Numbered from the stretch's first letter, positions 13,453-57,347 are shown. The stretch is 64,000 nt of DNA from Patescibacteria group bacterium (GCA_004297735.1 SCTI01000002.1:64160-128159), one strand, 5' to 3'. A program made the numbers and translations. Notes: a model not told the origin generated them from the letters alone.

Positions 13453-13854
13453 CTAGAACCAGGTGTTGTCTACGACCGAACCGTACGGCAGACCAACTCC
13501 TGGAGGCATGTTCAGGCGATACTTCGCCGCCTCTTCCTGCCTCTCCCACCGCTCGAGCAACCCAATCACTCGGTGACAGAACGACTGATCCTCTATCGAG
13601 CAGTCGATCATGGCCTGATGGTTGGCCCACCAGGTTGCGCGGGCGGTGGACGGGTCGTAAACCCGCCCGTCAGCGTTGGGGCTGCACTTGAGCACCCACT
13701 CCAGCGCGACGCACTCGATGTAGGTCAGCCCGGCCGCTACGAAGTCGCAGCTGCCGTCGGCACGAAGATGCAACTGGTAGCGACGGTGCGCCTCGCGAAG
13801 CGATGGCGTGGGTCGCAGCTGCCGCTTGATGGCCTTGAACAAACTACTCAGCAT
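13453..13854 (-). CDS. Hypothetical protein, member B of a tandem three-paralog family (about 133 aa; internal ATG preceded by a GGAGGAGA RBS)
   Basis: Shares RRY-x5-A[ED]G and V[IT]xxL[DAE][RW]W[DLE] blocks with the two upstream ORFs; start overlaps stop of A (ACATGCTGA). Confidence 0.6.
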   Translation of the reverse strand: MLSSLFKAIKRQLRPTPSLREAHRRYQLHLRADGSCDFVAAGLTYIECVALEWVLKCSPNADGRVYDPSTARATWWANHQAMIDCSIEDQSFCHRVIGLLERWERQEEAAKYRLNMPPGVGLPYGSVVDNTWF

Positions 13855-14231
13855 GTCGTCTCCTCCAGTCGACCAGGCTGATTGACGGTACGAGCTTGGC
13901 TTGAGGCCAGCTCGATCTGACTCTGCCCTTCCCTGCTGTACATCAGCCACCAGTCGAGCACCTTGATGACGTCGATCGCCATCATGCGCGTTGCGTCGGT
14001 AGCCAATGGAGAATCACGTATGCCCGTCCAGTGATCGAGTAGTCGGTGGATCTGGCTCCAGCCTACAGGCTTAAGCTGGCAGTAGGCGGTTAACTCAGCC
14101 TTGGTAACCACTACATGCAGACTAAACGACTCATCCTGCTCGGCCCGCTCGATATACCGAGCCACCTTCTCGTAAGCGATTGGCCAAGCGCGGTGGTTGG
14201 TCCACCACTGGCGCAGTGCCCTAAAGTGCAT
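13848..14231 (-). CDS. Hypothetical protein, member A of the tandem three-paralog family (127 aa)
   Basis: GAGGAGG RBS; paralogous blocks as above; high-GC segment. Confidence 0.6.
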   Translation of the reverse strand: MHFRALRQWWTNHRAWPIAYEKVARYIERAEQDESFSLHVVVTKAELTAYCQLKPVGWSQIHRLLDHWTGIRDSPLATDATRMMAIDVIKVLDWWLMYSREGQSQIELASSQARTVNQPGRLEETTC

Positions 14232-17308: not shown

Positions 17309-19264
17309 ATGAGCAAGGTGGCGACAAAAAATTACGTGGTGGTTTCACCGCTTACCTACACCGGCGCCGAAACGCGCGGCTTTACCTATGACAGCGGCGA
17401 ACAAGAGCTGCCGGTCGGTCAGATCGTCAAAGTGCCTCTTGGGCGGCGCCAGAGCCTGGGCGTGGTTACTCAAATCAACCTACCTAAACCAGAATTCGCT
17501 ACCAAGCCGGTTAGCGAGGTGCTCGACCTCCCGCCTCTACCCGCACATATCACCAATCTTGCAACCTGGATGCAAGATTACTACTACGCCAGCGCTAAGT
17601 CGGTCTGGCAGACCCTGCTACCGGCCGGCATCACGCGTAAGCGACGAATAAAAGAGGTTGAGCCAAGCCCGCTCACTCTTAAACCCTCAACCGAACCACT
17701 TACCGCCGAGCAGGAGGCTGCAATTAAGGTGGTTGAAACTGGCCAGCGCCCGACCACTCTGATTCGGGGCGTTACTGGGGCTGGCAAGACCCGTATTTAC
17801 ATGGAGCTGGTGGCGACCGAGCTGGCCAAGGGTAACTCGGCCATTATCTTGGTGCCAGAGATCGCCCTTACGCCTCAGCTGCTAGCGTTGTTTCACGCTC
17901 GCTTCCCTAACCGCATCCTGGCTTATCATTCAACCTTAACCGAGAGCCAAAAACATGTGGCCTGGCAACGTGCCCTGCTCAGCGAGGAGCCAATGGTGGT
18001 GGTTGGCGCCCGATCGGGTCTGTTTTTGCCACTAGCGCGTCTTGGCCTGGTGGTTATTGATGAGTGCCACGAAACCAGCTACAAGCAAGAACAGAACCCG
18101 CGCTACCACGCCGTAACCGCCGCCGCTCAGCTGGCTCGCCTGGCCGGCGCCAAGCTGGTGCTCGGGAGCGCCACCCCTGGCGTCCAAGAGGCTTACTTGG
18201 CGAGCGAAGGGCGCCTCAACCTAGCCGAGCTAACCAAGCGCGTCCAAAACCGTAGCCACCCCGAGATCAAGGTAATTGATATGCGTCAGGCCGAGGTCAA
18301 ACAGTGCGGCAGTCAGATCTCCCGGCCACTGCTACAAGCACTAACGGAAACGCTGGAGGCTGGCCGCCAATCTTTACTGTTTATTAACCGCCGCGGTAGC
18401 GCCAGTAGTCATCAGTGTGACGATTGTGGCTACGTCAGCAGTTGCCCCACCTGCCATCTGCCTCTTACCTTCCACGGCGATCGCACCAAGCTGCTCTGCC
18501 ACATCTGTAACTACCAGCTCACCCCACCAGCAATCTGTCCCGAATGCAGCCATGCCAGCTTTAAGTTTCTTGGTGGCGGCACGCAGCGAATTGAGGCCGA
18601 CATTCAGCGGCTGCTGCCAAAAGCTCGACTGGCGCGACTCGATAAAGACAGTGCTCGCGGCCACGACCTGGCCGAACTTCACCGCCAGCTCCACGCCGGT
18701 GAGATCGACATCTTGATTGGCACCCAGATGATCGCCAAGGGCCTGGACCTGCCGGCCCTCGACACGGTTGGGGTGATTAACGCCGACACCATGCTGCACA
18801 TGCCCGACTACAGCGCCAGCGAGCGCACCTATCAGCTCCTCACCCAGGTGGCAGGTCGAGCTGGGCGGGGCGATGCCAGCGGCATGGTCTACATTCAGAC
18901 CCACAGCCCAACTCACCCGGCGGTGACCGCAACGGTTAACGGCGACTACTGGAAGTTCGCCAATGCTGAGCTAGCGGAGCGCCAAGAACATGGCTACCCA
19001 CCCTTCCGCTATCTGTTAAAGCTAACCGTGTCCCACCAGGATAAAGCCACCGCCTCTAGAAGAGCCCAGGAGCTATATGGTAAACTTGGCCAGGTAGAGC
19101 AGGTTCGCCGTCTCGGTCCCGCCCCCGCTTTATACGACCGCGCCGGAGGTCAGTACCACTGGCATATCATCGTTAAAGCCGCCTCCCGCCCCCGCTTGCT
19201 AGCTGTTGCTAAGCTGTTGCCGGACTGGTGTAAGACCGATATTGACCCGATTAATCTGCTATAA
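17309..19264 (+). CDS. priA: Primosomal protein N' (PriA helicase)
   Basis: 651 aa, DEAD/DEAH helicase motifs plus Cys-rich zinc-binding region (CDDCGY..CPTCH..CHIC..CPEC); TACAAT box 7 nt upstream of the ATG suggests leaderless mRNA. Confidence 0.9.
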   Translation: MSKVATKNYVVVSPLTYTGAETRGFTYDSGEQELPVGQIVKVPLGRRQSLGVVTQINLPKPEFATKPVSEVLDLPPLPAHITNLATWMQDYYYASAKSVWQTLLPAGITRKRRIKEVEPSPLTLKPSTEPLTAEQEAAIKVVETGQRPTTLIRGVTGAGKTRIYMELVATELAKGNSAIILVPEIALTPQLLALFHARFPNRILAYHSTLTESQKHVAWQRALLSEEPMVVVGARSGLFLPLARLGLVVIDECHETSYKQEQNPRYHAVTAAAQLARLAGAKLVLGSATPGVQEAYLASEGRLNLAELTKRVQNRSHPEIKVIDMRQAEVKQCGSQISRPLLQALTETLEAGRQSLLFINRRGSASSHQCDDCGYVSSCPTCHLPLTFHGDRTKLLCHICNYQLTPPAICPECSHASFKFLGGGTQRIEADIQRLLPKARLARLDKDSARGHDLAELHRQLHAGEIDILIGTQMIAKGLDLPALDTVGVINADTMLHMPDYSASERTYQLLTQVAGRAGRGDASGMVYIQTHSPTHPAVTATVNGDYWKFANAELAERQEHGYPPFRYLLKLTVSHQDKATASRRAQELYGKLGQVEQVRRLGPAPALYDRAGGQYHWHIIVKAASRPRLLAVAKLLPDWCKTDIDPINLL

Positions 19265-26189: not shown

Positions 26190-27206
26190 CTACCAGCCGG
26201 CGGGATCGCCCATGGGGGCGATCGGGATGGCCGGCTGGGCCGGTGCAGGGGCCGGCACCGCGGGTGCTCCGTCGTCCGGAACTCCCGAGCTGTCGGGCCC
26301 GGTCGGCTCAGCGACATCGTCATCGGTGATGACGATCTTCTTGGCCGCCTTCTTGGCCTTGCGCCGGTCCCGCCATCCCGGCATCGAGTTGGCGAGCGAA
26401 GCCGCGAACTCCGGGTCTTCCGCCAGCCTACTCTTGAGCTGGGCAGACAGACCGTCGAGCCAGCCGTCGTCCTCGGCGAGGGCCCGGCCGACCTCGGTGG
26501 CAAAGGCCACCGGGTCGAGCTGATCGACCCGATCGGACAGAGCGGTCAGCTGATCCAGGAACCCGGGGTCATCCTCGGTGGCCTGGATGGTCTGAGCCAG
26601 CTCATTGAGACTGGTCAGAACCTCGGCCATCTGATCGCCAGACGGCGGCTGGCCGGGATCTCCGGTGCCACCGGCGGGAACCGGAGCGAGCGGCGGGCCC
26701 GGATCGGGGACCAGATCCGCCAGCTCCTTGCGCACCTCGCGCTCCGCCTGCGCCCTTCGGCGCTGCTGGAGCGCCACCTCATCGTCGAGCTCGAGCTCCT
26801 TAGCCCGAGCATCGATCACCCGGTCGGCGGCCTGCCTGAGGGAGTGCTCCCCCGCCTGGCGCTCCCGGCGAACCTCATGTCGCAGCGCGTCGAGCGAGGG
26901 CGGCTGGGGTGCCGTCTGCCGGAACTGGTCCAGCATCGACGCGACAGCCTCCTGAGCGGCCTGGCTGGCGATGCGCTCGGCCTCCTGCCGGGTCACACCG
27001 CCATCCTCGCGCCGCGAACGGCGCTGGGAGCCCTGCCTCGGAGTCGGGGACTCCTCAGCGGCAGGGGTGGGTGCCACCGGCGGTTCGGCCGGCGGAGCGT
27101 CCTGCGAGGGCGCCCCATCCGAGGCCGGAGCCTCGTCGGGGAATGCGTCATCGAGGGCGGAGGCGAGGTCGCCGCCGCCCGTTCGTGTACCGGCCATGTT
27201 GTTCAT
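26190..27206 (-). CDS. Hypothetical acidic Pro/Ala-rich, largely disordered protein (338 aa); island gene 3
   Basis: High-GC ORF, ATGA overlap with the upstream gene. Confidence 0.6.
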   Translation of the reverse strand: MNNMAGTRTGGGDLASALDDAFPDEAPASDGAPSQDAPPAEPPVAPTPAAEESPTPRQGSQRRSRREDGGVTRQEAERIASQAAQEAVASMLDQFRQTAPQPPSLDALRHEVRRERQAGEHSLRQAADRVIDARAKELELDDEVALQQRRRAQAEREVRKELADLVPDPGPPLAPVPAGGTGDPGQPPSGDQMAEVLTSLNELAQTIQATEDDPGFLDQLTALSDRVDQLDPVAFATEVGRALAEDDGWLDGLSAQLKSRLAEDPEFAASLANSMPGWRDRRKAKKAAKKIVITDDDVAEPTGPDSSGVPDDGAPAVPAPAPAQPAIPIAPMGDPAGW

Positions 27207-37710: not shown

Positions 37711-38058
37711 CTACTGGATCCTGGTAACCGTTCCGTCGCGGTTGAGTCGCCAGTACAGCCGAGAGCGACCGCGCGTTTTGGCGACAACACTCCCGGCCGC
37801 GACGATCTCGCCGGCGAACTCTCCGGTGGCGCCGGCTGCCGACACGTACTGAGTGGTGCCACTGCCAGGAAGGCCGCGCCCAACGACTTGCTTGGCCCGA
37901 CTGGTCAGCTGGTTCGGGTCGACTCCCTCCCTGCAGAGCACCCGTCGGCAGACGCCAACGCGGTTGACGGCTGATCTGCCGGGGCGGTCCTGCCTCCTTG
38001 CAGCGCTACTTCGAGCGGCCCCGCCTTCGAGCAGCTCGTCGCGCAACTGGCTGTTCAT
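37711..38058 (-). CDS. Small hypothetical protein (115 aa) in a 65% GC islet
   Basis: GGAGAG RBS before ATG; GC3-rich. Confidence 0.45.
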   Translation of the reverse strand: MNSQLRDELLEGGAARSSAARRQDRPGRSAVNRVGVCRRVLCREGVDPNQLTSRAKQVVGRGLPGSGTTQYVSAAGATGEFAGEIVAAGSVVAKTRGRSRLYWRLNRDGTVTRIQ

Positions 38059-38221
38059 GAACTCTCCTTCTGGTTGCAAAACCGGTGGATACTCTTTTAT
38101 ACCTTGCAATCGAGTATAAGCACAAGCTTTATTTAATACAAACTCACCTTGACACCAGATCGTAACAGATGTAGCTTAGAGGCAAGCATAAGCATTAATT
38201 CACGACGTTAGGGTCGCGTTC

Positions 38222-40158: not shown

Positions 40159-40272
40159 ATCCGGCACCGACCTACTTTCCCCATAAAGAGTATCATCGGC
40201 GCTGAGGAGCTTAACTTCGGTGTTCGGGATGGGAACCGGTGTGGCCTCCTCGCTAAAAGCACCGGGCTACCA
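40159..40272 (-). rRNA. rrf: 5S ribosomal RNA
   Basis: Reverse complement matches the bacterial 5S core (..CACACCGGTTCCCATCCCGAACACCGAAGTTAAGC..GCGCCGATGATAC..). Confidence 0.9.
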
Positions 40273-40289: not shown

Positions 40290-43550
<3,261 letters not shown>

Positions 43551-43960
43551 TTACGATTCGTTTGACGAGCGATGTATGGTTACAAATTCATGTTTCCACC
43601 CATCACTCATTGGTTGGTATTGCATCTGTTTATGATCGTAAAAATTCATAAACAGTACCCAAAACAATTACATGGGAAGTAATTGTTTCGTCTTAAAATT
43701 CATTTAATTTTCAAAAAACAACTCCGCGGTTTGTACCTCGCGGAGCCCACATTCAAACAGACAAATTTACCTAGCCCGAGAACGTGCCTCCGTTAGTGCT
43801 GGTTAATTGTCTACTCATATATGAGCTCCAATAGTCGAAATTAAGAGTACCAAAATAACCAGGTGGTGTAAAGAGGTTAATTGTGACAAAAATAACAACG
43901 CCCCTCGCAGGTATTTACAACACTACGAGTGACGCTGAAATGTCGGGATAAATTAAGCGA

Positions 43961-44290
43961 CTAAGCGGCGTCGCGCTGTTCAGCGGCAGGCTGTTCGGGC
44001 GAGGCTTGAGCGGCCTTAGCGGCGGCAGCAGCTTCAACTCGAGCCCGTGCCTCCTCGAGGTTAGCTGGAGCTGAGGCAGTCTCGGCAGCTACCTGCGTAA
44101 GAGCCTCATCGCGTTCGATGGTGCGCAAAGTTTCATTTGTGCTATCCATTACACGACGACCTTCTAGCTTGGCCTCCGCCAACTCACCGTTTGCCTCCTT
44201 AAGGGCATCACGATGAAACAGATTCCCAATTCGATTGAGGAATCCACCTTTTTCTTGCTCTTGCGGGGCTGGATTTTCTGGTCCTGGCAT
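43961..44290 (-). CDS. Hypothetical helical Ala/Glu-rich protein (109 aa)
   Basis: ORF followed by the bidirectional terminator at 44354-44377. Confidence 0.45.
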   Translation of the reverse strand: MPGPENPAPQEQEKGGFLNRIGNLFHRDALKEANGELAEAKLEGRRVMDSTNETLRTIERDEALTQVAAETASAPANLEEARARVEAAAAAKAAQASPEQPAAEQRDAA

Positions 44291-44353
44291 GTTTTTGTTT
44301 TTCCTTAATGGTAACCCTATTATACCTGATGAAAGCGCTTATGTAAATACAAC

Positions 44354-44377
44354 AAAGCCGCCGGTTAGGGCGGCTTT
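44354..44377. terminator. Bidirectional terminator AAAGCCGCCGGTTAGGGCGGCTTT
   Basis: Read directly. Confidence 0.8.
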
Positions 44378-44397
44378 GTTTGAGCGTTAGACGCTAC

Positions 44398-44607
44398 TTA
44401 AGCGGCTGGTGCTTCGCCTTCTGCTGGTGCAGGTTCAGCGGGTGCCTCAGGCGCAGAAGCTGGCTCTTCAACCGGGGCTTCCGGAGCTGGAGCGGGTGCT
44501 TCTGGCGCAGGAGCAGCCTCAGGAGCATCTACTACTGGCTCAGCAGCTGGCGCATCGGTGACCGGTACGTCGGTTGCTGGTACGGCTGGAGTGTTTTCTT
44601 CTTGCAT
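44398..44607 (-). CDS. Possible small acidic Pro/Ala/Glu-repeat protein (69 aa)
   Basis: ATG with AGGAA upstream; low-complexity in GC-rich DNA, so it could be spurious. Confidence 0.3.
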   Translation of the reverse strand: MQEENTPAVPATDVPVTDAPAAEPVVDAPEAAPAPEAPAPAPEAPVEEPASAPEAPAEPAPAEGEAPAA

Positions 44608-44781
44608 ACTACCTGATTCCTATTTAGGTTTTGTTTGGTACCTCTCTATTATTTCACGTCACCCAGCATAAGCACAATAGTGAGTTGGTTTGAATGATTA
44701 CGCTTATGCATGCATATAGCTGTTATGCATAGTATTATTACCCGGTACGCCGTGTACGTCCCTACCCAAGGAGAGTCCACT

Positions 44782-45117
44782 GTGACCACCGCCACCGCAC
44801 CGATCATCTCGGTTACACCGGGTCGTTCACTGGCCCAGCGCATGGACGCGCTGCAGAAGGCCAACGAGATCCGTACTCGTCGTGCTCAGCTCAAGCGCGA
44901 CCTCAAGGCCGGCCGAGCGTCGATCCGTGAGATCCTGCTGAACCCGCCGGTGTGGCTCGAGACCGCCAAGGTCTTCGACATGCTGCTGGCGACGCCGAAG
45001 TACGGCCGGGTCAAGGTCAACAAGATCCTGGCCCAGTGCCGCATCTCCCCCAGCAAGACGATGGGCGGTCTGTCGGAGCGCCAGCGCAGCGAGCTGGCCT
45101 CCCTACTCCGCCAGTAG
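44782..45117 (+). CDS. Actinobacterial-type integration host factor (mIHF/sIHF family), paralog 1 (GTG start, AAGGAGAG RBS)
   Basis: 111 aa; aligns along its length with mycobacterial mIHF (..QRxxALxKAxxxRxxRAxLKxxLKxG..G.VKVxxxL..I.P.....GLxxRQRxxL..). Confidence 0.8.
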   Translation: MTTATAPIISVTPGRSLAQRMDALQKANEIRTRRAQLKRDLKAGRASIREILLNPPVWLETAKVFDMLLATPKYGRVKVNKILAQCRISPSKTMGGLSERQRSELASLLRQ

Positions 45118-45132
45118 CGGCACGCTGCCCCA

Positions 45133-45172
45133 CGCGCGGGTTCCCTCACCGGAACTCGCGCGTTTCGCTTTT
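45133..45172 (+). terminator. Intrinsic terminator (CGCGCGGGTTCC..GGAACTCGCGCG plus TTTCGCTTTT)
   Basis: Hairpin with one mismatch plus U-run after mIHF paralog 1. Confidence 0.7.
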
Positions 45173-45256
45173 AAAAGTCCTTATGCTTGAGCCGGCTTAT
45201 GGTTACTGATACTCTGCCCAGGTAGGTGTGAACATATCCATTTAGGGGGTGCTGCC

Positions 45257-45685
45257 GTGACGACGGCAACCATTACTCTGCCGCCCAGGAAGGGTGAGCA
45301 ACCGCAGCACTTGGCCGCTCTTGAGCGCGCCAACGAAGTTCGACTGGCCCGAGCCGAGCTCAAGCGCAGGATCGGCACTGGCGAGACCAACGTCAGCAGA
45401 ATTGTGCTGTCGACCCCTCCAGAAGCAGCCGGCATGACCGTGGCTGATCTGCTGATGGCGCAAAAGCGCTGGGGTCGAACTCGCACGCGCAAGTTCCTGC
45501 TCGGGATTCCGATCACCGAAACCAAGACGGTTGGGAGCCTGACCGAACGGCAGCGCAACGCCATCGCCAAGGCCCTGGAGGCTCCCACCGAGGCCTCAAC
45601 GACCACTCCGAGCCGCGAAGAGCGCATCGAGGCTTTCGCCGCTCAGATGCAGCGCTCGGGCGAGCCCGGTCGAACGGCTAGCTAA
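45257..45685 (+). CDS. Actinobacterial-type integration host factor (mIHF/sIHF family), paralog 2 (GTG start) with extended C-terminus
   Basis: 142 aa; same VTTAT N-terminus and mIHF core as paralog 1. Confidence 0.78.
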   Translation: MTTATITLPPRKGEQPQHLAALERANEVRLARAELKRRIGTGETNVSRIVLSTPPEAAGMTVADLLMAQKRWGRTRTRKFLLGIPITETKTVGSLTERQRNAIAKALEAPTEASTTTPSREERIEAFAAQMQRSGEPGRTAS

Positions 45686-45826
45686 TCGACCAGGCCGCCT
45701 GCACACCAACGGGGCCTCATCTCACACCGGAGATGGGGCCCAAATCGACTCTACCAAGATTACGTCCTTATAAAGCCATCATATGGTTGCCAGCAGCGCC
45801 ATTTTCTGCTTAAATACTTTCGTTGT

Positions 45827-45903
45827 GGGCTTGTAGCTCAGCTGGTTAGAGCGCGTCACTGATAATGACGAGGTCGCAGGTTCGAGTCCTGCCAAGCCCA
45901 CCA
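45827..45903 (+). tRNA. tRNA-Ile (anticodon GAT)
   Basis: Cloverleaf with 7 bp acceptor stem, GGTTCGAGTCC T-arm, CTGATAA anticodon loop, CCA end; TTGCCA-17-TTAAAT promoter upstream. Confidence 0.92.
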
Positions 45904-45924
45904 TTTTTGTATCTATCCCCACTT

Positions 45925-46001
45925 GGGGCATTAGCTCAGCTGGCTAGAGCACCTGCTTTGCAAGCAGGGGGTCATCGGTTCGAATCCGATATGCTCCACC
46001 A
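45925..46001 (+). tRNA. tRNA-Ala (anticodon TGC) with G3:U70 identity pair
   Basis: Cloverleaf, CTTTGCAA anticodon loop, GGTTCGAATCC T-arm, CCA end. Confidence 0.92.
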
Positions 46002-46107
46002 TTCATTATTTAAATGCTTAAGCTCTTGCTATCTTAAGCGTTTTATGTTATTATAGTGCAACTTGTTGGGGTATACGAATCCCTAACCTGAGCACACTGG
46101 AGACCCG

Positions 46108-46893
46108 ATGGTTCCTCCGTTCGTCACCAAGCTGTTCCGCAATCCGTGGCCGGAGACGGTCCCGAACGGGACCCTGATCCGCATCTTCGCCGATGCGGTC
46201 GAGCAGACCTACAGCAGCCTCGTGCCGAAGTGGCAGGAGAGCGGCGAGCTGGATCCCGAGAAGGACTCCTTCGCCGGGGTCATCCTCGATCCGACCAACC
46301 CGCGTGAGGCGACGACCATCGCCGAGCGCGTCATGATCGTGTTCGGCTGGGGGCCGGATATGGCCGACTTCGTCCCCAATGGGATGTCCAAGGCGGACTC
46401 CCAGGAGCGCTTCGGCATCCCCAACGGATGGCTGATCGAGAACGCCAGCTACTGCATCGCCGACGGCGAGTTCACATGGGGTCACTCCGCTGGCGTCGAC
46501 TACCTCATCGAGGGCATCGACGAGACCACCGTCATCTTCGACGGTGGCGGCAGCGGCTACTCCGCCGAGCAGGACAAGAAGGTCGTACAGGAAGTCGGCG
46601 AGCTGGGCCTCCTGAAGATCAAGGAGATCCGCGACGCCTGGCTGGCCGCCCGGCGTGCCGAGGAGGCCGGCCGTCGCTGGTACAACAACAGCGACACGCC
46701 CGACCCGAAGTACGCGCAGATCCTGACCATGCCGGTCATCGCGGCCATTGGCCCTGAGGAGCTGCGCGGCGGCCCCACCCCGGACTGGATGAAGTCGGCG
46801 GGCGCTGTCGTCAAGCCGACCATGGAACCGGGCATCTCCGCGTTCGGTTCGCCGACCATGGCGCCGGGCATCGCACCCAGCGGCCACTCGTAG
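46108..46893 (+). CDS. Hypothetical soluble protein (261 aa) with extreme GC3 (about 90%)
   Basis: Nearly every codon ends in G/C, contrasting with backbone genes; followed by two tandem hairpin terminators (46900-46960). Confidence 0.6.
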   Translation: MVPPFVTKLFRNPWPETVPNGTLIRIFADAVEQTYSSLVPKWQESGELDPEKDSFAGVILDPTNPREATTIAERVMIVFGWGPDMADFVPNGMSKADSQERFGIPNGWLIENASYCIADGEFTWGHSAGVDYLIEGIDETTVIFDGGGSGYSAEQDKKVVQEVGELGLLKIKEIRDAWLAARRAEEAGRRWYNNSDTPDPKYAQILTMPVIAAIGPEELRGGPTPDWMKSAGAVVKPTMEPGISAFGSPTMAPGIAPSGHS

Positions 46894-47007
46894 GCCCCAG
46901 GCCTACAACGCCCTCGAAGAGGGTTTTCACAGCACTACGTTGTGGAAGCCCCTTCGGGGGCCTTTCACTTTCTTATCCCTATTACCATAAGCTGTTATAC
47001 TGCAACC

Positions 47008-47289
47008 ATGGAACTGTTTAATCAAATCCTATTCGGTGGGCTAGCTATGGCTGCCGGCGTGGCGATGGTTAAGTACAGCTTTTGGCTAACCAATCAAACC
47101 GGTAGCATCGGCACCGTTGAGCGCTACATGGGTGCCGGCTCAACCTATACCTTTTATAAAATACTGGGAATTATCGTAATTATCGGTGGCCTGTTTTACA
47201 TGACCGGCATGCTCACCCCAATTATGGAGTGGCTATTCGCTCCGCTAGCTCCAATATTTGCGCCGTTTAGGGGCCAAAACGGCTCGTAA
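47008..47289 (+). CDS. Small hypothetical membrane protein (93 aa); leaderless (TATACT 6 nt upstream of ATG)
   Basis: Three hydrophobic helices; same GTTATACTnnAACCATG context as the ROK gene. Confidence 0.5.
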   Translation: MELFNQILFGGLAMAAGVAMVKYSFWLTNQTGSIGTVERYMGAGSTYTFYKILGIIVIIGGLFYMTGMLTPIMEWLFAPLAPIFAPFRGQNGS

Positions 47290-47298
47290 AGCCGTCTC

Positions 47299-47715
47299 CT
47301 ACCGGCGGCGATGGTGCCGTAATTTAACCGCATGCAGCCTGGCCAGGTTGCGCTCAACCAAGTGATGAGTGGCGCGAATATCCGACTCTTCTTTATGAGT
47401 CTCTAAGGCAGCCTTGGCCTCGGCCAACGCCTGATGCGCCCGGTGTTCATCAATGCTATCGACGTGCTCAGCGGTTTCGGCACTAACCTCAACCGTGTCG
47501 CCGTCAACCCGCAACAGCCCGCCGCCGACGGCAAAATGATCATGCTCATCAGAGTCTTTACGGGCAGTAACATGAACCACCCCCGGGCGCAGCGAAATCA
47601 CCAAGCTGGTGTGGCCCGGCATGATCGAAACATCGCCCTCAACCGTAGGCACAACCAACTCATACACCTCGCTATCGAGCAAAACTCCTTCGGGTGAAAT
47701 CAAGCGGGCTAGCAC
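47299..47715 (-). CDS. atpC: ATP synthase F1 epsilon subunit
   Basis: 138 aa; last gene of the operon. Confidence 0.85.
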   Translation of the reverse strand: MLARLISPEGVLLDSEVYELVVPTVEGDVSIMPGHTSLVISLRPGVVHVTARKDSDEHDHFAVGGGLLRVDGDTVEVSAETAEHVDSIDEHRAHQALAEAKAALETHKEESDIRATHHLVERNLARLHAVKLRHHRRR

Positions 47716-47718
47716 GCC

Positions 47719-49140
<1,422 letters not shown>

Positions 49141-50034
49141 CTATGCGTCGGTTAAGGCGGCCACTCCACCACTAATCTCGGCCAGCTCTTGGGTAATGGC
49201 GGCTTGGCGGGCGGTGTTGTAGGCCAGGGTTAGTTCATCAATAAGCTCGCTGGCGTTGTCGGTAGCGTTTTGCATTGCCAGCATACGCATGGCATGCTCA
49301 CTGGCCACCGCGTTGGTAGCAGCATCAAGCAGGGCGGCCTGTGCCCAACCGGTAGCGACCGAGGTAATCGCCTCTTCGGCGGTTGGCTCAAGGGTGAGCG
49401 AGCCGGAGTCACCAGGTTTCGATTCAACGCCGTCGGTTCCGGAGTCGGCGGTCAGGGGTAACAACTCGGTGGTAGCCACCTGTTGATTGAGCGACGAGAT
49501 AAACCGCGTAGTTAGTACCATAACCGAGCTGATCTCGCCCAGACGGTAACGGTCTAGCAGACTGGCGGCCATCCCTCGGACCGCTCGCATATCTGGACTA
49601 ACGGTTAAACCGGGATACAGGCTAATCGCCTCAACCTGTTTAAGGCGATTGGTCATCTGCTCGACCTGCTGCCCAATCGCGGCCACCTCAACCTTGGTGC
49701 CCGCCAGGGTGTACTGGCGCACCAACTGGCGCAATCCGGATTCAATGCGACTTAAATAGGCGCCGGCCAGACCACGATCGCTAGCAAACACCACAATCAG
49801 CGCCGGAGCCTGCGGGTTGGGCGCCTGTGCCAACGGGTGTAAGCGCCAGTCATCGGTGGTGGCGGCTTCGGCCAAGACCCGGTTGAGCTGTTGGCGATAA
49901 ACGGTAGCCGACTGAGCCGCATTGGCAGCCGCTCGCAGCTTGCTGGCCGCCACCAACTGCATCGCTTTGGTGATCTGGCGAGTGCTGGTCACTGAGCGAA
50001 TCCGGCGCTTAATGGCAGTGGTTCCGGCAGCCAT
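49141..50034 (-). CDS. atpG: ATP synthase F1 gamma subunit (start at MAAGTTAIKRRI..)
   Basis: ITKAMQLVAASKLR N-terminal helix. Confidence 0.88.
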   Translation of the reverse strand: MAAGTTAIKRRIRSVTSTRQITKAMQLVAASKLRAAANAAQSATVYRQQLNRVLAEAATTDDWRLHPLAQAPNPQAPALIVVFASDRGLAGAYLSRIESGLRQLVRQYTLAGTKVEVAAIGQQVEQMTNRLKQVEAISLYPGLTVSPDMRAVRGMAASLLDRYRLGEISSVMVLTTRFISSLNQQVATTELLPLTADSGTDGVESKPGDSGSLTLEPTAEEAITSVATGWAQAALLDAATNAVASEHAMRMLAMQNATDNASELIDELTLAYNTARQAAITQELAEISGGVAALTDA

Positions 50035-50036
50035 TA

Positions 50037-51602
50037 TTAAGCCTCCGCTCCAGGTTGACGACGGTATGGTGCCAGCGCCTTGGTGGCACACTGCAACAGC
50101 TCATCGCGACTATCGGCCGACAGTTTGTCGCCCTGGTTGACCTGTTTGGTTAACTTAGCGTGGTGCTCGGTTAAATTATTGAGCGCCGCACGAATAGCGT
50201 CGGTCATATCATCCATTGAAACCTGATCAAACAGACCCTCTTCGCCAGCTAAAAGCAAGATTGACTGCTCAGCCACGCCCAGTGGGCTGTACTGCGGCTG
50301 TTTAAGGATGGCGGTCATCCGCTCACCGCGCACCAAGCGCTGCTTGGTTTCAGCATCCAGATCAGACGAAAACTGACCAAAGCTAGCGACTTCGCGGTAC
50401 TGAGCCAGATTAATTCGCAATGAACCGGCCAGCTTTTTGATAACTGGCGGCTGAGCCGCTCCACCCACCCGCGAAACACTTAATCCAACGTTAATGGCGG
50501 GGCGAGTACCCTGGTTAAACAGATCGGTATCTAAAAAGATTTGGCCGTCGGTAATACTAATCACATTGGTTGGAATGTAGGCGCTAACATCGCCGGCCTG
50601 GGTTTCAATAATTGGCAGCGCGGTCAGCGAACCACCACCCTGCTTGTCGCTCAGCTTGGCGCTGCGCTCCAGTAAGCGTGAGTGCAGGTAGAACACGTCT
50701 CCCGGGAAGGCCTCGCGACCTGGTGGACGGCGCAGTAGCAACGACAGCTGTCGGTAAGCCTGGGCGTGCTTGGTAAGGTCGTCGTAAATAATTAACGCGT
50801 CGCCCTTGTTGTCGCGGAACTCCTCGGCCATGGCGGTGGCGGCATAGGGAGCCAAATACTGCAACGCTGCCGCATCCGATGCCCCGGCCGCCACAATAAT
50901 GGTGTTATCCAGCGCGCCGGCCTGGCGCAGCTTTTCGGTCAGCTGAGCCACTCGCGACAGCTTCTGCCCAATTGCCACATACACGCTGACTACACCGCTG
51001 TCCTGCTTGGTTTGGTTGATGATAGTGTCGACAGCGATTGCGGTCTTACCGGTACCACGGTCACCAATGATCAATTGGCGCTGGCCGCGGCCAACTGGGG
51101 TAACCGCATCGATCGAAACCAAGCCGGTGGCCAAGGGCTGGTGTACCGACTGGCGGCTCATCACGTCAGGAGCCGGAGCCTCAACCGGGCGACGAGTCTT
51201 GGTTTTAATCTCACCCTTACCGTCCAGGGGCCGCCCCAGCGGATCAACCACTCGACCCAACAACGCCTTGCCGGCCGGAACTGTTAGCAGTTGATTGGTT
51301 GAGGTAACCCTCGCCCCCGCCATAATCGCTTGATCATCGCCAAGTACCACCGCGCCAACCTGATCCTGCAACAGGTTGAGCACCAAAGCCTGGACGCTGC
51401 CGGCAGCGGTCTCAATTTCAACCACCTCGCCCATCCGCTGGCTGCTCAGGCCTTCGTAGCTCACCACGCCATCACCCACCTTGAGCACTCGCCCCTCCGC
51501 CTTAAGCTCGGCCGGCGCCGAAAGTCCCTTAGCCGAATCAATAAGAGCCTGTTTGACCGCTGAAACATCGATTTTGGGGGTAGATTTTTGGGTATTAGCC
51601 AT
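50037..51602 (-). CDS. atpA: ATP synthase F1 alpha subunit
   Basis: 521 aa; GDRGTGKT P-loop. Confidence 0.95.
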   Translation of the reverse strand: MANTQKSTPKIDVSAVKQALIDSAKGLSAPAELKAEGRVLKVGDGVVSYEGLSSQRMGEVVEIETAAGSVQALVLNLLQDQVGAVVLGDDQAIMAGARVTSTNQLLTVPAGKALLGRVVDPLGRPLDGKGEIKTKTRRPVEAPAPDVMSRQSVHQPLATGLVSIDAVTPVGRGQRQLIIGDRGTGKTAIAVDTIINQTKQDSGVVSVYVAIGQKLSRVAQLTEKLRQAGALDNTIIVAAGASDAAALQYLAPYAATAMAEEFRDNKGDALIIYDDLTKHAQAYRQLSLLLRRPPGREAFPGDVFYLHSRLLERSAKLSDKQGGGSLTALPIIETQAGDVSAYIPTNVISITDGQIFLDTDLFNQGTRPAINVGLSVSRVGGAAQPPVIKKLAGSLRINLAQYREVASFGQFSSDLDAETKQRLVRGERMTAILKQPQYSPLGVAEQSILLLAGEEGLFDQVSMDDMTDAIRAALNNLTEHHAKLTKQVNQGDKLSADSRDELLQCATKALAPYRRQPGAEA

Positions 51603-51990
51603 GGATTGCTCCTAGTTTAGTTAGTTTATGTTGCACGGTATCACGCACGACGTGATCACCCACACGTGCCTCAAAGCCACCAATCAGCTCCGGTTTAACC
51701 TGGTTGGTGTAGCTGTAGTGGCTGAGCCCAGCCTGCTTAGCTAGAGCGGCCGCAATCTGGTCAAGCTCGGCAGGAGCCAGCTCGTGAGCGGTGGTAATGG
51801 CAATCTCGGCCGTCTGATGCCGGCGAATAATCTCTTGCTCAATCGCCTGGACTAGCGAATCAACCTGATTACTGTAACCATTATCGGCCGCCAATTGCAT
51901 GGTAGCCGCCGCCAGCCCCTCCAGCGGCTGATGCTCCAACTGGTCTACAAACTGCGCCGCTAGCGCTCGCTTTGATAGTTTTGGTGTCAC
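51595..51990 (-). CDS. atpH: ATP synthase F1 delta (OSCP) subunit, short form
   Basis: 131 aa, ELIGGF..GD C-terminal motif. Confidence 0.75.
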   Translation of the reverse strand: MTPKLSKRALAAQFVDQLEHQPLEGLAAATMQLAADNGYSNQVDSLVQAIEQEIIRRHQTAEIAITTAHELAPAELDQIAAALAKQAGLSHYSYTNQVKPELIGGFEARVGDHVVRDTVQHKLTKLGAIHG

Positions 51991-52514
51991 TACTTGGCCG
52001 CTCCGGTTAATGCTTTTTTAACACTAGCCGCATCAGCCTTAGGACTGATCTCGCCACGAGTGACCTCGGTGGTAGCGGTGGCAACCACCTCACCCATCTC
52101 TCTAAGCAGCTCAGCCTGCGCCTTAGCCTGCTGGGAGGCCAAATGGCGCTCACCTTGGGCGACGGCCGCCTGAGCGTTCCCACGAGCCTCCGCAACGATC
52201 TGCTTGGCCTCATGCTCGGCTTCCAAGCGGGCGTCGGCAATCAACTGCTTAGCCTCGGTCTTGGCAGCCGCCAGCACCTTGTCGCGCTCATCCTGAGCCT
52301 GGGCCGCCTCAAGCTTGGCCTGCTGAGCCTGCTGCAAACTAGCTTCAATTGCCTTACGGCGCTTTTCGAGCAGGTTGATGATTGGCGGAAAGGCATACTT
52401 TTGCAGCACCCAGTACAGGATGGCAAAGTTGATCAACTGGAAGACCAGCGCCCCCAGGTTAATCCCTAGTGCGCCCAGTCCCCCGGTACTTTCGGCTGCA
52501 AACATGAACTGCAT
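51990..52514 (-). CDS. atpF: ATP synthase Fo b subunit
   Basis: N-terminal TM plus long Ala/Gln/Glu coiled coil. Confidence 0.85.
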   Translation of the reverse strand: MQFMFAAESTGGLGALGINLGALVFQLINFAILYWVLQKYAFPPIINLLEKRRKAIEASLQQAQQAKLEAAQAQDERDKVLAAAKTEAKQLIADARLEAEHEAKQIVAEARGNAQAAVAQGERHLASQQAKAQAELLREMGEVVATATTEVTRGEISPKADAASVKKALTGAAK

Positions 52515-52547
52515 CTTAAATTATTTTCTCCTTAAACCCCTTCATCC

Positions 52548-52775
52548 CTACAAGAACAGGATGATGAAAGCGAACAGCAAGGCAAAGATGGCTAGAGCCT
52601 CGGTAAAGGCAATACCCAAAATCATGGTCTGCTGTACCTTGCTTTGCGATTCTGGGTTACGACCGATCGCCTCGACTGCCTTAGCGGCGATTAAGCCAAT
52701 GCCGATACCCGGTCCAATCGCGCCGATGGCGATGGTTAGGCCGGCGGCTAGGTTCTTCATACTTTCTGCGTCCAT
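52548..52775 (-). CDS. atpE: ATP synthase Fo c subunit (start at MDAESMKNL.., AAAGGAGAA RBS)
   Basis: Hairpin of two TM helices with conserved carboxylate. Confidence 0.85.
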   Translation of the reverse strand: MDAESMKNLAAGLTIAIGAIGPGIGIGLIAAKAVEAIGRNPESQSKVQQTMILGIAFTEALAIFALLFAFIILFL

Positions 52776-52797
52776 TATTTTCTCCTTTAATCGTTCT

Positions 52798-53529
52798 TTA
52801 ATGAGCTGCTTCGTGGCTGGTCGACATTGCAATAAACACCATCGTCAGCATCGTGAATACCAGTGCTTGAATAAAGCCAACAAAAATCTCGAGCCCCCAA
52901 AATGGCGTGGGTCCGAGTAGCGGCAGGAGCGCCGAAATCACGATCAGAAGCACCTCTCCTGCAAAGATATTACCAAATAATCGGAAAGAGAACGAGATCA
53001 CCCGGGTAGATTCTAGAATAATCTCCTGTACACCCAGAATATTCATCATCGGATTACTCGAAAAGTACCGTCGTAGGTTGCCAATGACGCCAAGCTCCCT
53101 AATCGCGTAAACCTGGGTCAAAATCACCGAGATCAGAGCCAAGGCAATGGTGGCGCTGAGGTCGGCCGTGACCGCCCGGAACAAAGGCACCTCACCAATG
53201 GTAATGGTGTTAAAACCAGGAAGTTGGGCAAACCAGTTGTTGCCCAAAATAAATAGAAAGATTGTGGCCAAGAACGGAAAGTACTGGAGGGCTCGTTGGC
53301 GACTGCCAAACACTCCCACCATCTGGTCAAGCAGGGTTTCAATCAAGGCCTCAATCGCCCCGGCAAAGCCACCAGCTGGGTGCAGCTTAATCTGGCGGGC
53401 GGCGTACACCATGCCCCCTCCTATCAGGACCGTGGTGATCACCGCGGTCAACATAGAGTTGGTAACCACAAAAGAACCGATATGCGCTATCGGTTCAGGT
53501 GCCAAACTTACATGCATTTCGGCGGCCAT
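52798..53529 (-). CDS. atpB: ATP synthase Fo a subunit
   Basis: 243 aa polytopic; conserved Arg-containing helix (..RLFGNIFAGE..). Confidence 0.88.
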   Translation of the reverse strand: MAAEMHVSLAPEPIAHIGSFVVTNSMLTAVITTVLIGGGMVYAARQIKLHPAGGFAGAIEALIETLLDQMVGVFGSRQRALQYFPFLATIFLFILGNNWFAQLPGFNTITIGEVPLFRAVTADLSATIALALISVILTQVYAIRELGVIGNLRRYFSSNPMMNILGVQEIILESTRVISFSFRLFGNIFAGEVLLIVISALLPLLGPTPFWGLEIFVGFIQALVFTMLTMVFIAMSTSHEAAH

Positions 53530-53647: not shown

Positions 53648-53923
53648 ATGAGATCTCAGATAACTAAATGGGGCAACAGTATGGCGGTACGCATACCAAA
53701 AGAAATCCTAGAGCAAACTGGGATCAAGGCACAGCAAACGGTCGATATCCGGGCTCAGGAGGGCGCAATCGTGATTGAACCTGCACTAAGTCGCGAGGAG
53801 CAGCTTAAACAACTGGTTGAGCAGATTACTCCTGAAAACAGGCATGAGCTGATTGACTGGGGCGAGGATGTAGGTGGGGAGATTTTGGAGCCATATGAAG
53901 GCGAAATACCAAAGTTTGACTAG
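53648..53923 (+). CDS. mazE: MazE/AbrB-type antitoxin
   Basis: SpoVT/AbrB swapped-hairpin N-terminus KWGNSMAVRIPKEIL. Confidence 0.8.
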   Translation: MRSQITKWGNSMAVRIPKEILEQTGIKAQQTVDIRAQEGAIVIEPALSREEQLKQLVEQITPENRHELIDWGEDVGGEILEPYEGEIPKFD

Positions 53924-54242
53924 AGGCGATGTCGTTTGGGCCAACTTAAGCCCTTCCAAGGGCTCGGAGCAGCGTGGGCTCAGACCGGTTATCATACTAA
54001 CACCTACGATATATCATGCCAAAAGCGGCATAATTGTGGTTTGCCCAGTAACTTCTCGGAGTAAAGGGTACCCATTTGAGGTCCCGCTCCCCCTATCAGG
54101 CACAGTTAGGGGCGTGGCTCTGTGCGATCAGATAAGAAGCATTCATGTTACCTCAAGGGTGAAGGGATTTGCCGGTCAGGTATCGAGTAGAACCCTGGCT
54201 GAGATCGAAGAAAAGCTCAAAATATTATTGCAGTTTAGCTAG
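53895..54242 (+). CDS. mazF: MazF/PemK-family endoribonuclease toxin (start ATG overlapping mazE by 29 nt)
   Basis: GDVVWANLSP..G.EQ.G.RPVIIL..VVCPVTS pattern. Confidence 0.8.
   Translation: MKAKYQSLTRGDVVWANLSPSKGSEQRGLRPVIILTPTIYHAKSGIIVVCPVTSRSKGYPFEVPLPLSGTVRGVALCDQIRSIHVTSRVKGFAGQVSSRTLAEIEEKLKILLQFS

Positions 54243-55835: not shown

Positions 55836-57347
<1,512 letters not shown>

Follow-up and report, generated by a model that had tools for sequence, protein, structure and literature searches.

Two mIHF genes of probable Solirubrobacterales origin at a variable site between the unlinked rRNA genes of a Patescibacteria genome

The locus

The window analysed here is the whole of a 64,000-nucleotide stretch (positions 64160-128159 of SCTI01000002.1, a contig of 494,657 bp in assembly GCA_004297735.1) from a metagenome-assembled genome (MAG) that bears the NCBI name 'Patescibacteria group bacterium' and is of tiny, reduced size. 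It contains two adjacent genes, mIHF-1 and mIHF-2, whose products resemble the mIHF/sIHF nucleoid proteins of Actinobacteria. These genes and a third open reading frame (ORF), ORF261, are found around a pair of transfer RNA (tRNA) genes, between the 23S-5S ribosomal RNA (rRNA) genes and the ATP synthase (atp) operon. A previous reading made from the sequence alone had taken the interval 43961-46960 as a high-GC island, either inserted as actinobacterial DNA in association with the tRNA genes or left by an old rearrangement that split the rRNA operon. The NCBI entries for mIHF-1, mIHF-2 and ORF261 describe hypothetical proteins (EPO04_02170, EPO04_02175 and EPO04_02190, respectively). The genes in question are the following.

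44782-45117, plus strand: mIHF-1, 111 amino acids, GTG start
45257-45685, plus strand: mIHF-2, 142 amino acids, GTG start
45827-45903, plus strand: tRNA-Ile(GAT), detected by ARAGORN and Rfam
45925-46001, plus strand: tRNA-Ala(TGC), detected by ARAGORN and Rfam
46108-46893, plus strand: ORF261, 261 amino acids, a third cassette that varies separately

Two members of the mIHF family

The sIHF and mIHF proteins are described as actinobacteria-specific nucleoid proteins with a helix-two-turns-helix (H2TH) domain, which bind DNA independently of its sequence and modulate topoisomerase I (PMC3627587). These properties, along with bending or compaction of DNA, are known for sIHF (PMC3627587) and mIHF (PMC3724605), and PMC6155035 and PMC10028186 belong to the literature on these proteins. 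The NCBIfam model NF041260 (actino_IHF) recognizes mIHF-1 with 70.5 bits (cut-off 60) over profile positions 8-99 of 102, and the Pfam model PF22525 (H2TH_5) with 30.1 bits (cut-off 27); residues 15-105 also match the solved structures of M. tuberculosis mIHF (6TOB, E 5.2e-11) and S. coelicolor sIHF (4ITQ, E 2.2e-6). Judged by these sequence tests, mIHF-1 is a canonical actinobacterial-type mIHF. The second protein reaches 48.9 bits with NF041260, which is below the cut-off of 60, yet the match runs along the domain; with PF22525 it scores 17 bits, below the cut-off of 27. It matches 6TOB with an E value of 6.2e-9 over residues 8-105, matches 4ITQ as well, and ends in a C-terminal tail of ~35 residues. 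Homology is clear from these alignments, and mIHF-2 is best classed as a member of a divergent mIHF paralogue subfamily that it shares with Solirubrobacteraceae. The matches to NF041260 along the domain and to both solved structures bear out the earlier assignment of the two ORFs to this family.

Both proteins retain the N-terminal helix and the helix-two-turns-helix DNA-binding core. Among the patescibacterial copies described below, the H2TH motif is invariant in each of them, as GRVKVNK...SKT.GGLSERQR in mIHF-1 and as WGR.R..KFL...E.KTVG.LT.RQR in mIHF-2. The canonical gene context of the family (pyr-mIHF-gmk-rpoZ) and a carrier among the Actinobacteria were not found here, the neighbours being rRNA, tRNA and atp genes. 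To judge from the conserved core, the most likely function of the two proteins is sequence-independent binding and bending of DNA, as nucleoid-associated proteins of the recipient's own chromosome.

Source of the mIHF genes

The mIHF-1 protein shares 77-84% amino acid identity with the canonical mIHF of Solirubrobacterales, and every named protein among its best 119 matches (74-84% identity) belongs to Solirubrobacteraceae, Capillimicrobium or Actinomycetota. At the nucleotide level it is 81% identical over 312 nt to the Solirubrobacteraceae gene JHC95_08985, in an alignment that ends at the ORF boundaries; JHC95_08985, from the MAG GCA_016462625.1, is located in the classical pyr-mIHF-gmk-rpoZ-coaBC neighbourhood. 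For mIHF-2 the best Solirubrobacterales matches show 64-72% identity. Its best matches fall in two groups, one formed by a few patescibacterial orthologues and the other by Solirubrobacteraceae-type proteins of 120-132 residues; the donor-type proteins, which include JHC95_08740 of a 'Solirubrobacteraceae bacterium', are 70-72% identical and lie on contigs of 72% GC in a conserved neighbourhood (aminotransferase / mIHF-2 / glyoxalase / MMPL / Mce). When mIHF-2 is compared with these donor loci, the coding sequence alone aligns. The nearest named relatives of both genes belong to one Solirubrobacteraceae MAG, GCA_016462625.1, where they are on different contigs. With only ~38% identity between them, and with separate counterparts in Solirubrobacteraceae, mIHF-1 and mIHF-2 did not arise by local duplication.

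From these comparisons, an actinobacterial origin of both mIHF genes, as the sequence-only reading had proposed, is well supported, and it can be narrowed to the order Solirubrobacterales (class Thermoleophilia). Best hits within the lineage of the backbone genes would have spoken for another origin; the best matches of both proteins are from Solirubrobacterales. The same data make Solirubrobacterales most plausibly the host of the recipient, an order that the literature found on Saccharibacteria does not name among the hosts of these epibionts. In two Solirubrobacteraceae-type contigs (L088, 6001-6369; L084, 1430-1828) the second mIHF-like paralogue was seen to fall below the Pfam and NCBIfam cut-offs, and in Solirubrobacteraceae it is apparently unannotated ('hypothetical protein').

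It was also considered that a phage, rather than naked host DNA, carried the mIHF genes. Eight IMG/VR contigs (L099-L106) of 67-73% GC encode mIHF relatives at 58-76% identity and lack the chromosomal neighbours gmk, rpoZ, coaBC and pyrD, and some of the genes beside these viral copies match endolysin or PHROG families; the donor gene pool therefore includes mIHF copies that are mobile. However, the chromosomal copies of Solirubrobacterales, at 77-84% identity, resemble the window gene more than the viral copies do, and for this reason phage transfer was ranked as a minor possibility. No phage genes or attachment repeats were found at the locus, the mIHF proteins of the window match no PHROGs family at an E value of 1e-4 or below, and the 'viral' contigs could be prophage-bearing fragments of host genomes. 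We thus regard this route as doubtful.

Layout of the region and related loci

A search with AtpD against the GTDB species representatives returned only MAGs of Patescibacteria/Saccharibacteria, at 77% identity or less, which agrees with the NCBI name and confirms that the genome is not actinobacterial; its class is probably Saccharimonadia. The other large genes of the window are ordinary housekeeping genes (gyrA, relA/spoT, priA, infB, recJ, secD and hisS). Codon usage is expressed below as a codon log-likelihood ratio, that is, the per-codon synonymous usage of Solirubrobacteraceae versus that of the window backbone, and GC3 is the GC content of third codon positions. The mIHF genes, the tRNA genes and ORF261 are flanked as follows.

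40159-40266, minus strand: 5S rRNA (Rfam, 85.9 bits), in the left conserved flank of the variable region
40381-43552, minus strand: 23S rRNA (Rfam, 2677 bits), in the left conserved flank
43961-44290, minus strand: ORF109, native fast-evolving small protein, GC3 0.45, codon log-likelihood ratio -0.96 (backbone-like)
44398-44607, minus strand: ORF69, native acidic small protein rich in Pro, Ala and Glu, GC3 0.31
47008-47289, plus strand: ORF115, native small membrane protein, with the ATG at 47008 (MELFNQ...) as likely start
47299-53529, minus strand: F1Fo ATP synthase operon, atpC to atpB, the conserved right flank between the tRNA genes and 16S
53874-54242, plus strand: PemK/MazF toxin gene, between the atp operon and 16S
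55838-57346, minus strand: 16S rRNA (Rfam)

Related loci were recovered by exact-protein look-ups and from the contexts of homologues; they come from independent samples and assemblers. The look-up with mIHF-1 itself returned no contig, although this protein is contained in the clustered database.

L001, Logan, same run as the window: identical ORF261 protein, ORF261-atpC junction
L002, JGI Ga0098074_1000018, 281 kb: sister genome; 16S 98.6%, 23S 97.0% and AtpD 95.7% identical to the window
L003, Logan SRR11048275, 9.65 kb: ORF261 homologue (P0122, the same as in L002), ORF115 homologue, atp operon
L087, Logan: 5' part of 23S, 97.2% identical; ORF69 homologue, followed at once by a single gene of mIHF-2 type
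L090 and L091, Logan and ENA, no rRNA on the contig: both mIHF genes
L092, ENA, mIHF-2 protein the same as in L091: mIHF-2, tRNA-Ile, tRNA-Ala and then directly an ORF115 homologue
L093/L094, Logan, no rRNA on the contig: arrangement as in L087, mIHF-1 absent

In the window the 16S and 23S genes are unlinked, 12.3 kb apart and with protein-coding genes between them. L002 has the same split and the same gene order (a CBM60 protein, 5S/23S, both mIHF genes, the tRNA genes, an ORF261 homologue, the atp operon and 16S), so that the split of the rRNA operon, part of the earlier reading, is common to both genomes. ARAGORN and Rfam agree that the tRNA-Ile and tRNA-Ala genes, which lie between 23S-5S and atp/16S, are on the strand opposite to 16S, 23S and 5S, as had also been noticed; they are former rRNA-spacer tRNAs, now inverted relative to 16S and 23S. 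Each of the two is 100% identical between the window and L002, and the block of tRNA-Ile, spacer and tRNA-Ala is 98.9% identical between the window and L092. The tRNA genes are thus native to the recipient.

The borders of the variable slots are native as well. ORF109, weakly conserved in L002 and L087, is outside the transferred DNA. ORF69 is the conserved left border of the mIHF slot, with 80% identity over its full length in L002 and, in L087 and L093, 85-89% over its N-terminal 38 residues. ORF115, with 76% identity in L002 (where the gene has 92 codons and starts at the equivalent ATG), is the right border of the ORF261 slot and is the gene that directly follows tRNA-Ala in L092. ORF109 and ORF69, both of which had been included in the high-GC interval 43961-46960, have a native composition.

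Between these borders the relatives differ by whole cassettes. In L087 and L093 the mIHF-1 cassette (window ~44713-45180) is missing with a clean junction, and L092 lacks ORF261 (window ~46011-46961). The mIHF-2 gene was found in all six lineages, mIHF-1 in four of the six (it is absent from L087 and L093), and ORF261, which could be scored in three lineages, in two of them. Atypical composition, distant closest relatives and patchy presence, the usual marks of horizontal acquisition, are all seen in mIHF-1 and mIHF-2; ORF261 shows the atypical composition and the patchiness. Around 80 other Patescibacteria atpD loci (+/-10 kb) there was no mIHF, ORF261, ORF115, rRNA gene or any of these tRNA genes, from which it follows that the split-rRNA/atp arrangement and the acquisitions are specific to a small clade.

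Further genes occupy the gap between 23S and ORF109/ORF69 in the relatives: an 80-residue ORF in L002 (7604-7846), a 149-residue ORF in L087 (1666-2115) and a bactofilin/DUF8173 protein of 384 residues in L093 (125-1279). None of the three has a counterpart in the window. As the extra genes differ between relatives, the stretch from 23S to the atp operon is considered an insertion hot spot. Another variable module within the split rRNA operon is the PemK/MazF site, where L002 has a MazE-PemK pair (17661-18255) and L003 has MazE alone. The 23S gene spans 3172 nt (3176 nt in L002) versus the 2925 positions of the bacterial model, which implies insertions of ~250 nt.

The comparison with relatives that the sequence-only reading had called for thus found mIHF-2 everywhere, while mIHF-1 and ORF261 are patchy and do not behave as one segment. 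This bears on the proposal that one contiguous actinobacterial island integrated at the tRNA-Ile/tRNA-Ala locus. Three genes of high GC3 do lie within 2.2 kb around two tRNA genes, and tRNA genes are classical integration sites. Nevertheless, the three cassettes are individually present or absent in close relatives, the tRNA genes and the intergenic DNA are native and conserved, the mIHF genes are not adjacent in the donor, and the donor homology stops at the ORF boundaries. Neither tRNA 3' end is repeated in the window (up to 3 mismatches), no integrase-like ORF is seen between 23S and the atp operon or among the ORFs of 43.5-47.3 kb, and the six main ORFs have no integrase match. A single island, and with it an insertion targeted to the tRNA genes, is therefore given up as very improbable.

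Abrupt switches in GC and codon usage within a MAG could also be produced if actinobacterial reads had been joined into a Patescibacteria contig during assembly or binning. At least eight assemblies, which differ in sample and assembler, show the same junctions; the foreign ORFs stand behind native promoter motifs, and the divergence of the orthologues between relatives keeps pace with that of the genomes. The check for a chimeric assembly, with the same architecture in L001, L002, L003, L087 and L090-L094, excluded one, and the probability left to an artefact is negligible.

Expression signals

The signals that flank the three cassettes are listed below.

44703-44781, plus strand: promoter and 5' untranslated region of mIHF-1, with a CTTATGCATG element, the Shine-Dalgarno sequence GGAGAG and the GTG start
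45132-45173, plus strand: intrinsic terminator of mIHF-1, 13-bp stem with 9 GC pairs and a T-run, conserved in L002
45180-45256, plus strand: promoter and 5' untranslated region of mIHF-2, with a CTTATGCTTG element and the Shine-Dalgarno sequence AGGGGG
46026-46054, plus strand: ORF261 promoter-like site, TTGCTA-17-TATTAT with TG
46948-46961, plus strand: terminator-like hairpin after ORF261, GCCCCTTCGGGGGC and then a T-rich run, conserved in L002

The motif CTTATGCWTG stands 77-79 nt before the GTG of both mIHF genes, and between it and the GTG come a -10-like box and a Shine-Dalgarno sequence. The motif occurs five times in the window (35141, 38183 on the minus strand, 40327, 44703 and 45180) versus 0.25 expected, a 20-fold excess; four of the five copies lie 56-83 nt upstream of start codons, three of them at 77-83 nt, and the fifth is in the spacer between 5S and 23S, on the other strand from the rRNA genes. 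Because it also stands ahead of two unrelated genes (35141 and 38183), CTTATGCWTG is taken as a native promoter feature, probably an UP or -35 element of the recipient, as its placement suggests. The single mIHF-2 gene of L087 and L093 carries the same leader as mIHF-2 of the window. In the ORF261 promoter-like site, the -10 region is similar to that of the ORF115 promoter. As far as the alignments and motifs indicate, the donor would have given the coding sequence only, and the promoters and ribosome-binding sites would come from the recipient. A metagenome scan with the conserved leader DNA pattern retrieved the L002 contig only, the pattern being probably too specific. A duplicated 95-bp promoter module in front of the two genes was dropped as a firm claim, given that what they share is only the 10-nt motif and a loose similarity.

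Composition, selection and order of arrival

The GC3 of mIHF-1, mIHF-2 and ORF261 is 0.87, 0.73 and 0.91, respectively (0.83, 0.76 and 0.87 in L002), versus 0.49-0.70, or about 0.60, in ~50 backbone ORFs, and the intergenic DNA of the region falls to 36-37% GC. A GC3 near 90% in all three genes, as previously stated, is thus right for mIHF-1 and ORF261 and too high for mIHF-2. A local process that raises GC was rejected as the cause of the high GC3, given that the adjacent native ORFs have values of 0.31-0.54. The codon log-likelihood ratio is +0.19 for mIHF-1, -0.28 for mIHF-2 and +0.31 for ORF261, with references of -0.70 +/- 0.14 for backbone genes and +0.43 +/- 0.06 for Solirubrobacteraceae genes.

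Nonsynonymous and synonymous divergence (dN and dS) between the window and L002 were estimated by the Nei-Gojobori method. The dN/dS values of 0.33 (mIHF-1), 0.35 (mIHF-2) and 0.38 (ORF261), compared with 0.025 for atpD and 0.03-0.14 for other backbone genes, show relaxed purifying selection on the acquired genes. The dS is 0.92 for mIHF-2, 0.62 for mIHF-1 and 0.43 for ORF261; in the backbone it is 1.16 for atpD and 1.16-1.7 for other genes, with atpC saturated. GC3, codon ratio and dS give one and the same order, and since this order also agrees with the presence and absence of the genes, it was inferred that mIHF-2 is the oldest, followed by mIHF-1 and then by ORF261.

The number of acquisitions was judged from the patescibacterial copies themselves. 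Their identity at third positions is 0.57-0.66 among each other versus 0.41-0.57 to the Solirubrobacteraceae copies of JHC95 and L084 (one patescibacterial copy reaches 0.59 to the donors); they share derived residues in five columns of mIHF-1 and two columns of mIHF-2, versus about zero in random donor subsets; and their insertion sites are identical. These characters suggest a single acquisition of each mIHF gene, followed by accelerated protein evolution in the recipient.

Several observations weigh against this history. In neighbour-joining (NJ) trees of the proteins the patescibacterial copies form no clade, with bootstrap values of ~20%, so that the case for one origin of each gene is based on synteny and a small number of characters. 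The protein sequence of every patescibacterial copy is no further from donor proteins than from its orthologues, and repeated re-acquisition or allele replacement from donor DNA may have taken place instead. In 23S the three genomes that have such data lie at nearly equal distances (96.4-97.8%), and the absence of mIHF-1 from L087 and L093 may be either primitive or a loss. The lower dS of the genes with high GC3 could be due to compositional constraint and not to later arrival. Finally, the family of ORF261 looks patescibacterial, as described below, which is a misfit with a simple actinobacterial origin.

In mIHF-1, positions A62 and Y74 have the donor state in the window but the derived M and L in all of L002, L090 and L091. 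For mIHF-2, in contrast, a common C-terminal tail places the window together with L090 and L091. Recombination, either between lineages or with DNA of the donor, may thus have given the two neighbouring genes separate histories.

Other ORFs of the window also have a high GC. The ORF at 26190-27206 (minus strand, 338 residues) has 71% GC, with GC1 0.79, GC3 0.82 and a codon ratio of +0.07; its protein is of low complexity, rich in Ala, Pro, Asp and Glu, and the Pfam search gave no match. It could be a further foreign gene, or else the amino acid content could account for its composition; as a proven transfer it was rejected, because such a low-complexity sequence raises GC by itself. The ORFs at 13453-13950 and 37711-38109 (both on the minus strand, GC3 0.73 and 0.71, codon ratios -0.24 and -0.32) have no Pfam match and are candidates for older, partly ameliorated acquisitions; the latter is preceded by the CTTATGCTTG promoter motif.

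ORF261

A word-indexed protein search with ORF261 found the L002 orthologue only. However, a profile search of 1.84 billion representatives retrieved 66 clusters of related proteins of ~200 residues, with E values down to 1e-38, and the gene is thus not the orphan that it was thought to be but belongs to a rare family. One of 30 clusters of the family carries an organism name, 'Candidatus Saccharimonadales bacterium', and the two homologues whose contigs were read are in small-genome contexts of 49-54% GC, with a GC3 equal to that of their neighbours. Among 44 members of the family none has a Pfam match, and tblastn of ORF261 against the GenBank phages found nothing. The structure was modelled from the alignment of these 44 sequences; the model predicts a GlcG/HbpS-like (DUF336-like) fold with a disordered C-terminal tail.

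The amino acid composition of ORF261 is that of its family, and its synonymous sites are like those of a genome of ~70% GC. Possible explanations of this codon usage are a passage through a high-GC genome, or a high-GC member of the family as donor. The view of ORF261 as actinobacterial DNA was not upheld, as members of the family are found in Saccharimonadales-type genomes with native composition.

Origin and role of the acquired genes

Taken as a whole, these results are probably best explained by separate transfers from Solirubrobacterales to Patescibacteria at the hot spot, where the genes were retained as nucleoid proteins. According to this proposal, the stretch between the unlinked 23S-5S genes and the atp operon would act as a hot spot of gene gain and gene loss. 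The mIHF-2 gene, counterpart of the second Solirubrobacteraceae paralogue, would have been taken up first from a Solirubrobacterales donor; the canonical mIHF-1 would have been inserted later, directly upstream of mIHF-2, and ORF261 downstream of the native tRNA-Ala. Each acquired ORF would have come under a promoter and ribosome-binding site of native type and would be closed by a hairpin terminator. The route of uptake could be natural transformation with host DNA. If mIHF-1 and ORF261 are in fact more recent than the divergence of the window and L002, recombination within the conserved flanks (rRNA, tRNA and atp) would have carried them from one lineage to another. Both recombination and uptake of host DNA are plausible, given that Saccharibacteria are naturally competent and grow on Actinobacteria (PMC10633639).

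A more far-reaching proposal is that the flow from the Solirubrobacterales host is ongoing, with imported host DNA recombining again and again into the hot spot between highly conserved rRNA, tRNA and atp sequences and gaining native promoters there, that homologous recombination then spreads the cassettes among related epibionts, and that the rebuilt set of two mIHF paralogues acts on host-derived DNA. We consider it unlikely. If true, the pair would serve in packaging or processing high-GC DNA taken in from the host, or in disturbing the host nucleoid, and it would be explained why GC3 stays at 0.83-0.91 despite the saturation of backbone synonymous sites between the sister genomes.

A related question is whether the mIHF proteins act on host DNA, imported into the symbiont or reached by the proteins as delivered effectors, and not on the symbiont chromosome. 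That both donor paralogues were assembled side by side and kept, and that the proteins evolve faster than in the donors, would be in accordance with such a role, and an epibiotic, DNA-importing lifestyle is documented for Saccharibacteria (PMC10633639). On the other hand, the locus shows no evident signal for secretion and no system for delivery, and specificity for host DNA is not to be expected of proteins that, like sIHF and mIHF, bind DNA without sequence preference (PMC3627587). This reading, which is purely inferential, has a slight probability, and a role on the recipient's own chromosome is preferred.

If the proposed transfers are correct, mIHF-1 and mIHF-2 would be the first members of the family found documented outside the Actinobacteria, and as two distinct paralogues. 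A full-text literature search found no paper that links mIHF with Patescibacteria or Saccharibacteria, in agreement with the earlier remark that two mIHF copies in a non-actinobacterium had not been described. The donor provides a testable host prediction for an uncultivated clade of Patescibacteria, namely Solirubrobacterales, which are abundant soil actinobacteria. The locus would be a compact example of a symbiont with a reduced genome that domesticates foreign ORFs, taking the coding sequence only and placing it under native promoters in a hot spot beside RNA genes. Since the three cassettes are apparently of different ages, amelioration could be read from them directly. General principles are not changed, as host-to-symbiont transfer is already known in Saccharibacteria.

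Comparison with known systems

The proteins of the window show full-length homology to mIHF of M. tuberculosis (Rv1388, 6TOB) and sIHF of S. coelicolor (SCO1480, 4ITQ). They have in common with them a length of ~110 residues, the long N-terminal helix followed by the H2TH core, and the motifs GRVK/GRTR and GxL(S/T)ERQR, and the closest donor copy is in the canonical mIHF-gmk-rpoZ context. They differ in that their carrier is a Patescibacterium, with the genes between split rRNA genes and behind native promoters, and in that mIHF-2 is below the NCBIfam and Pfam cut-offs and has a tail of about 35 residues at its C-terminus.

A precedent for the transfer is the gain of the arginine deiminase system by Saccharibacteria from surrounding bacteria (PMC8764695). 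In that case, as here, an epibiont with a reduced genome acquires ready-made genes, and the hosts known for cultivated Saccharibacteria are Actinobacteria (PMC10633639); unlike it, the cargo here is a pair of chromatin proteins and not a metabolic system, and it would have been gained stepwise at a single hot spot. The tRNA-associated islands are similar in that genes of foreign composition adjoin tRNA genes. They differ from this locus, which has no integrase, no att or tRNA-end repeats and no contiguous foreign block, and whose cassettes vary independently.

For ORF261 the comparison is with GlcG, HbpS, EfgA and the C-terminal domain of PduO (PduO-C), the DUF336 proteins (PF03928, 'haem-degrading'), with which it shares a predicted fold. 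In contrast with them, ORF261 has no Pfam match, is only 11-18% identical, is longer (a core of ~200 residues) and bears the disordered tail.

Unlinked rRNA genes occur in bacteria with reduced genomes. The window is like these in the distance of 12.3 kb between 16S and 23S and in the protein-coding genes between them; it is unlike them in that the spacer tRNAs have been kept, though in inverted orientation, and in that the gap has become a site of gene acquisition.

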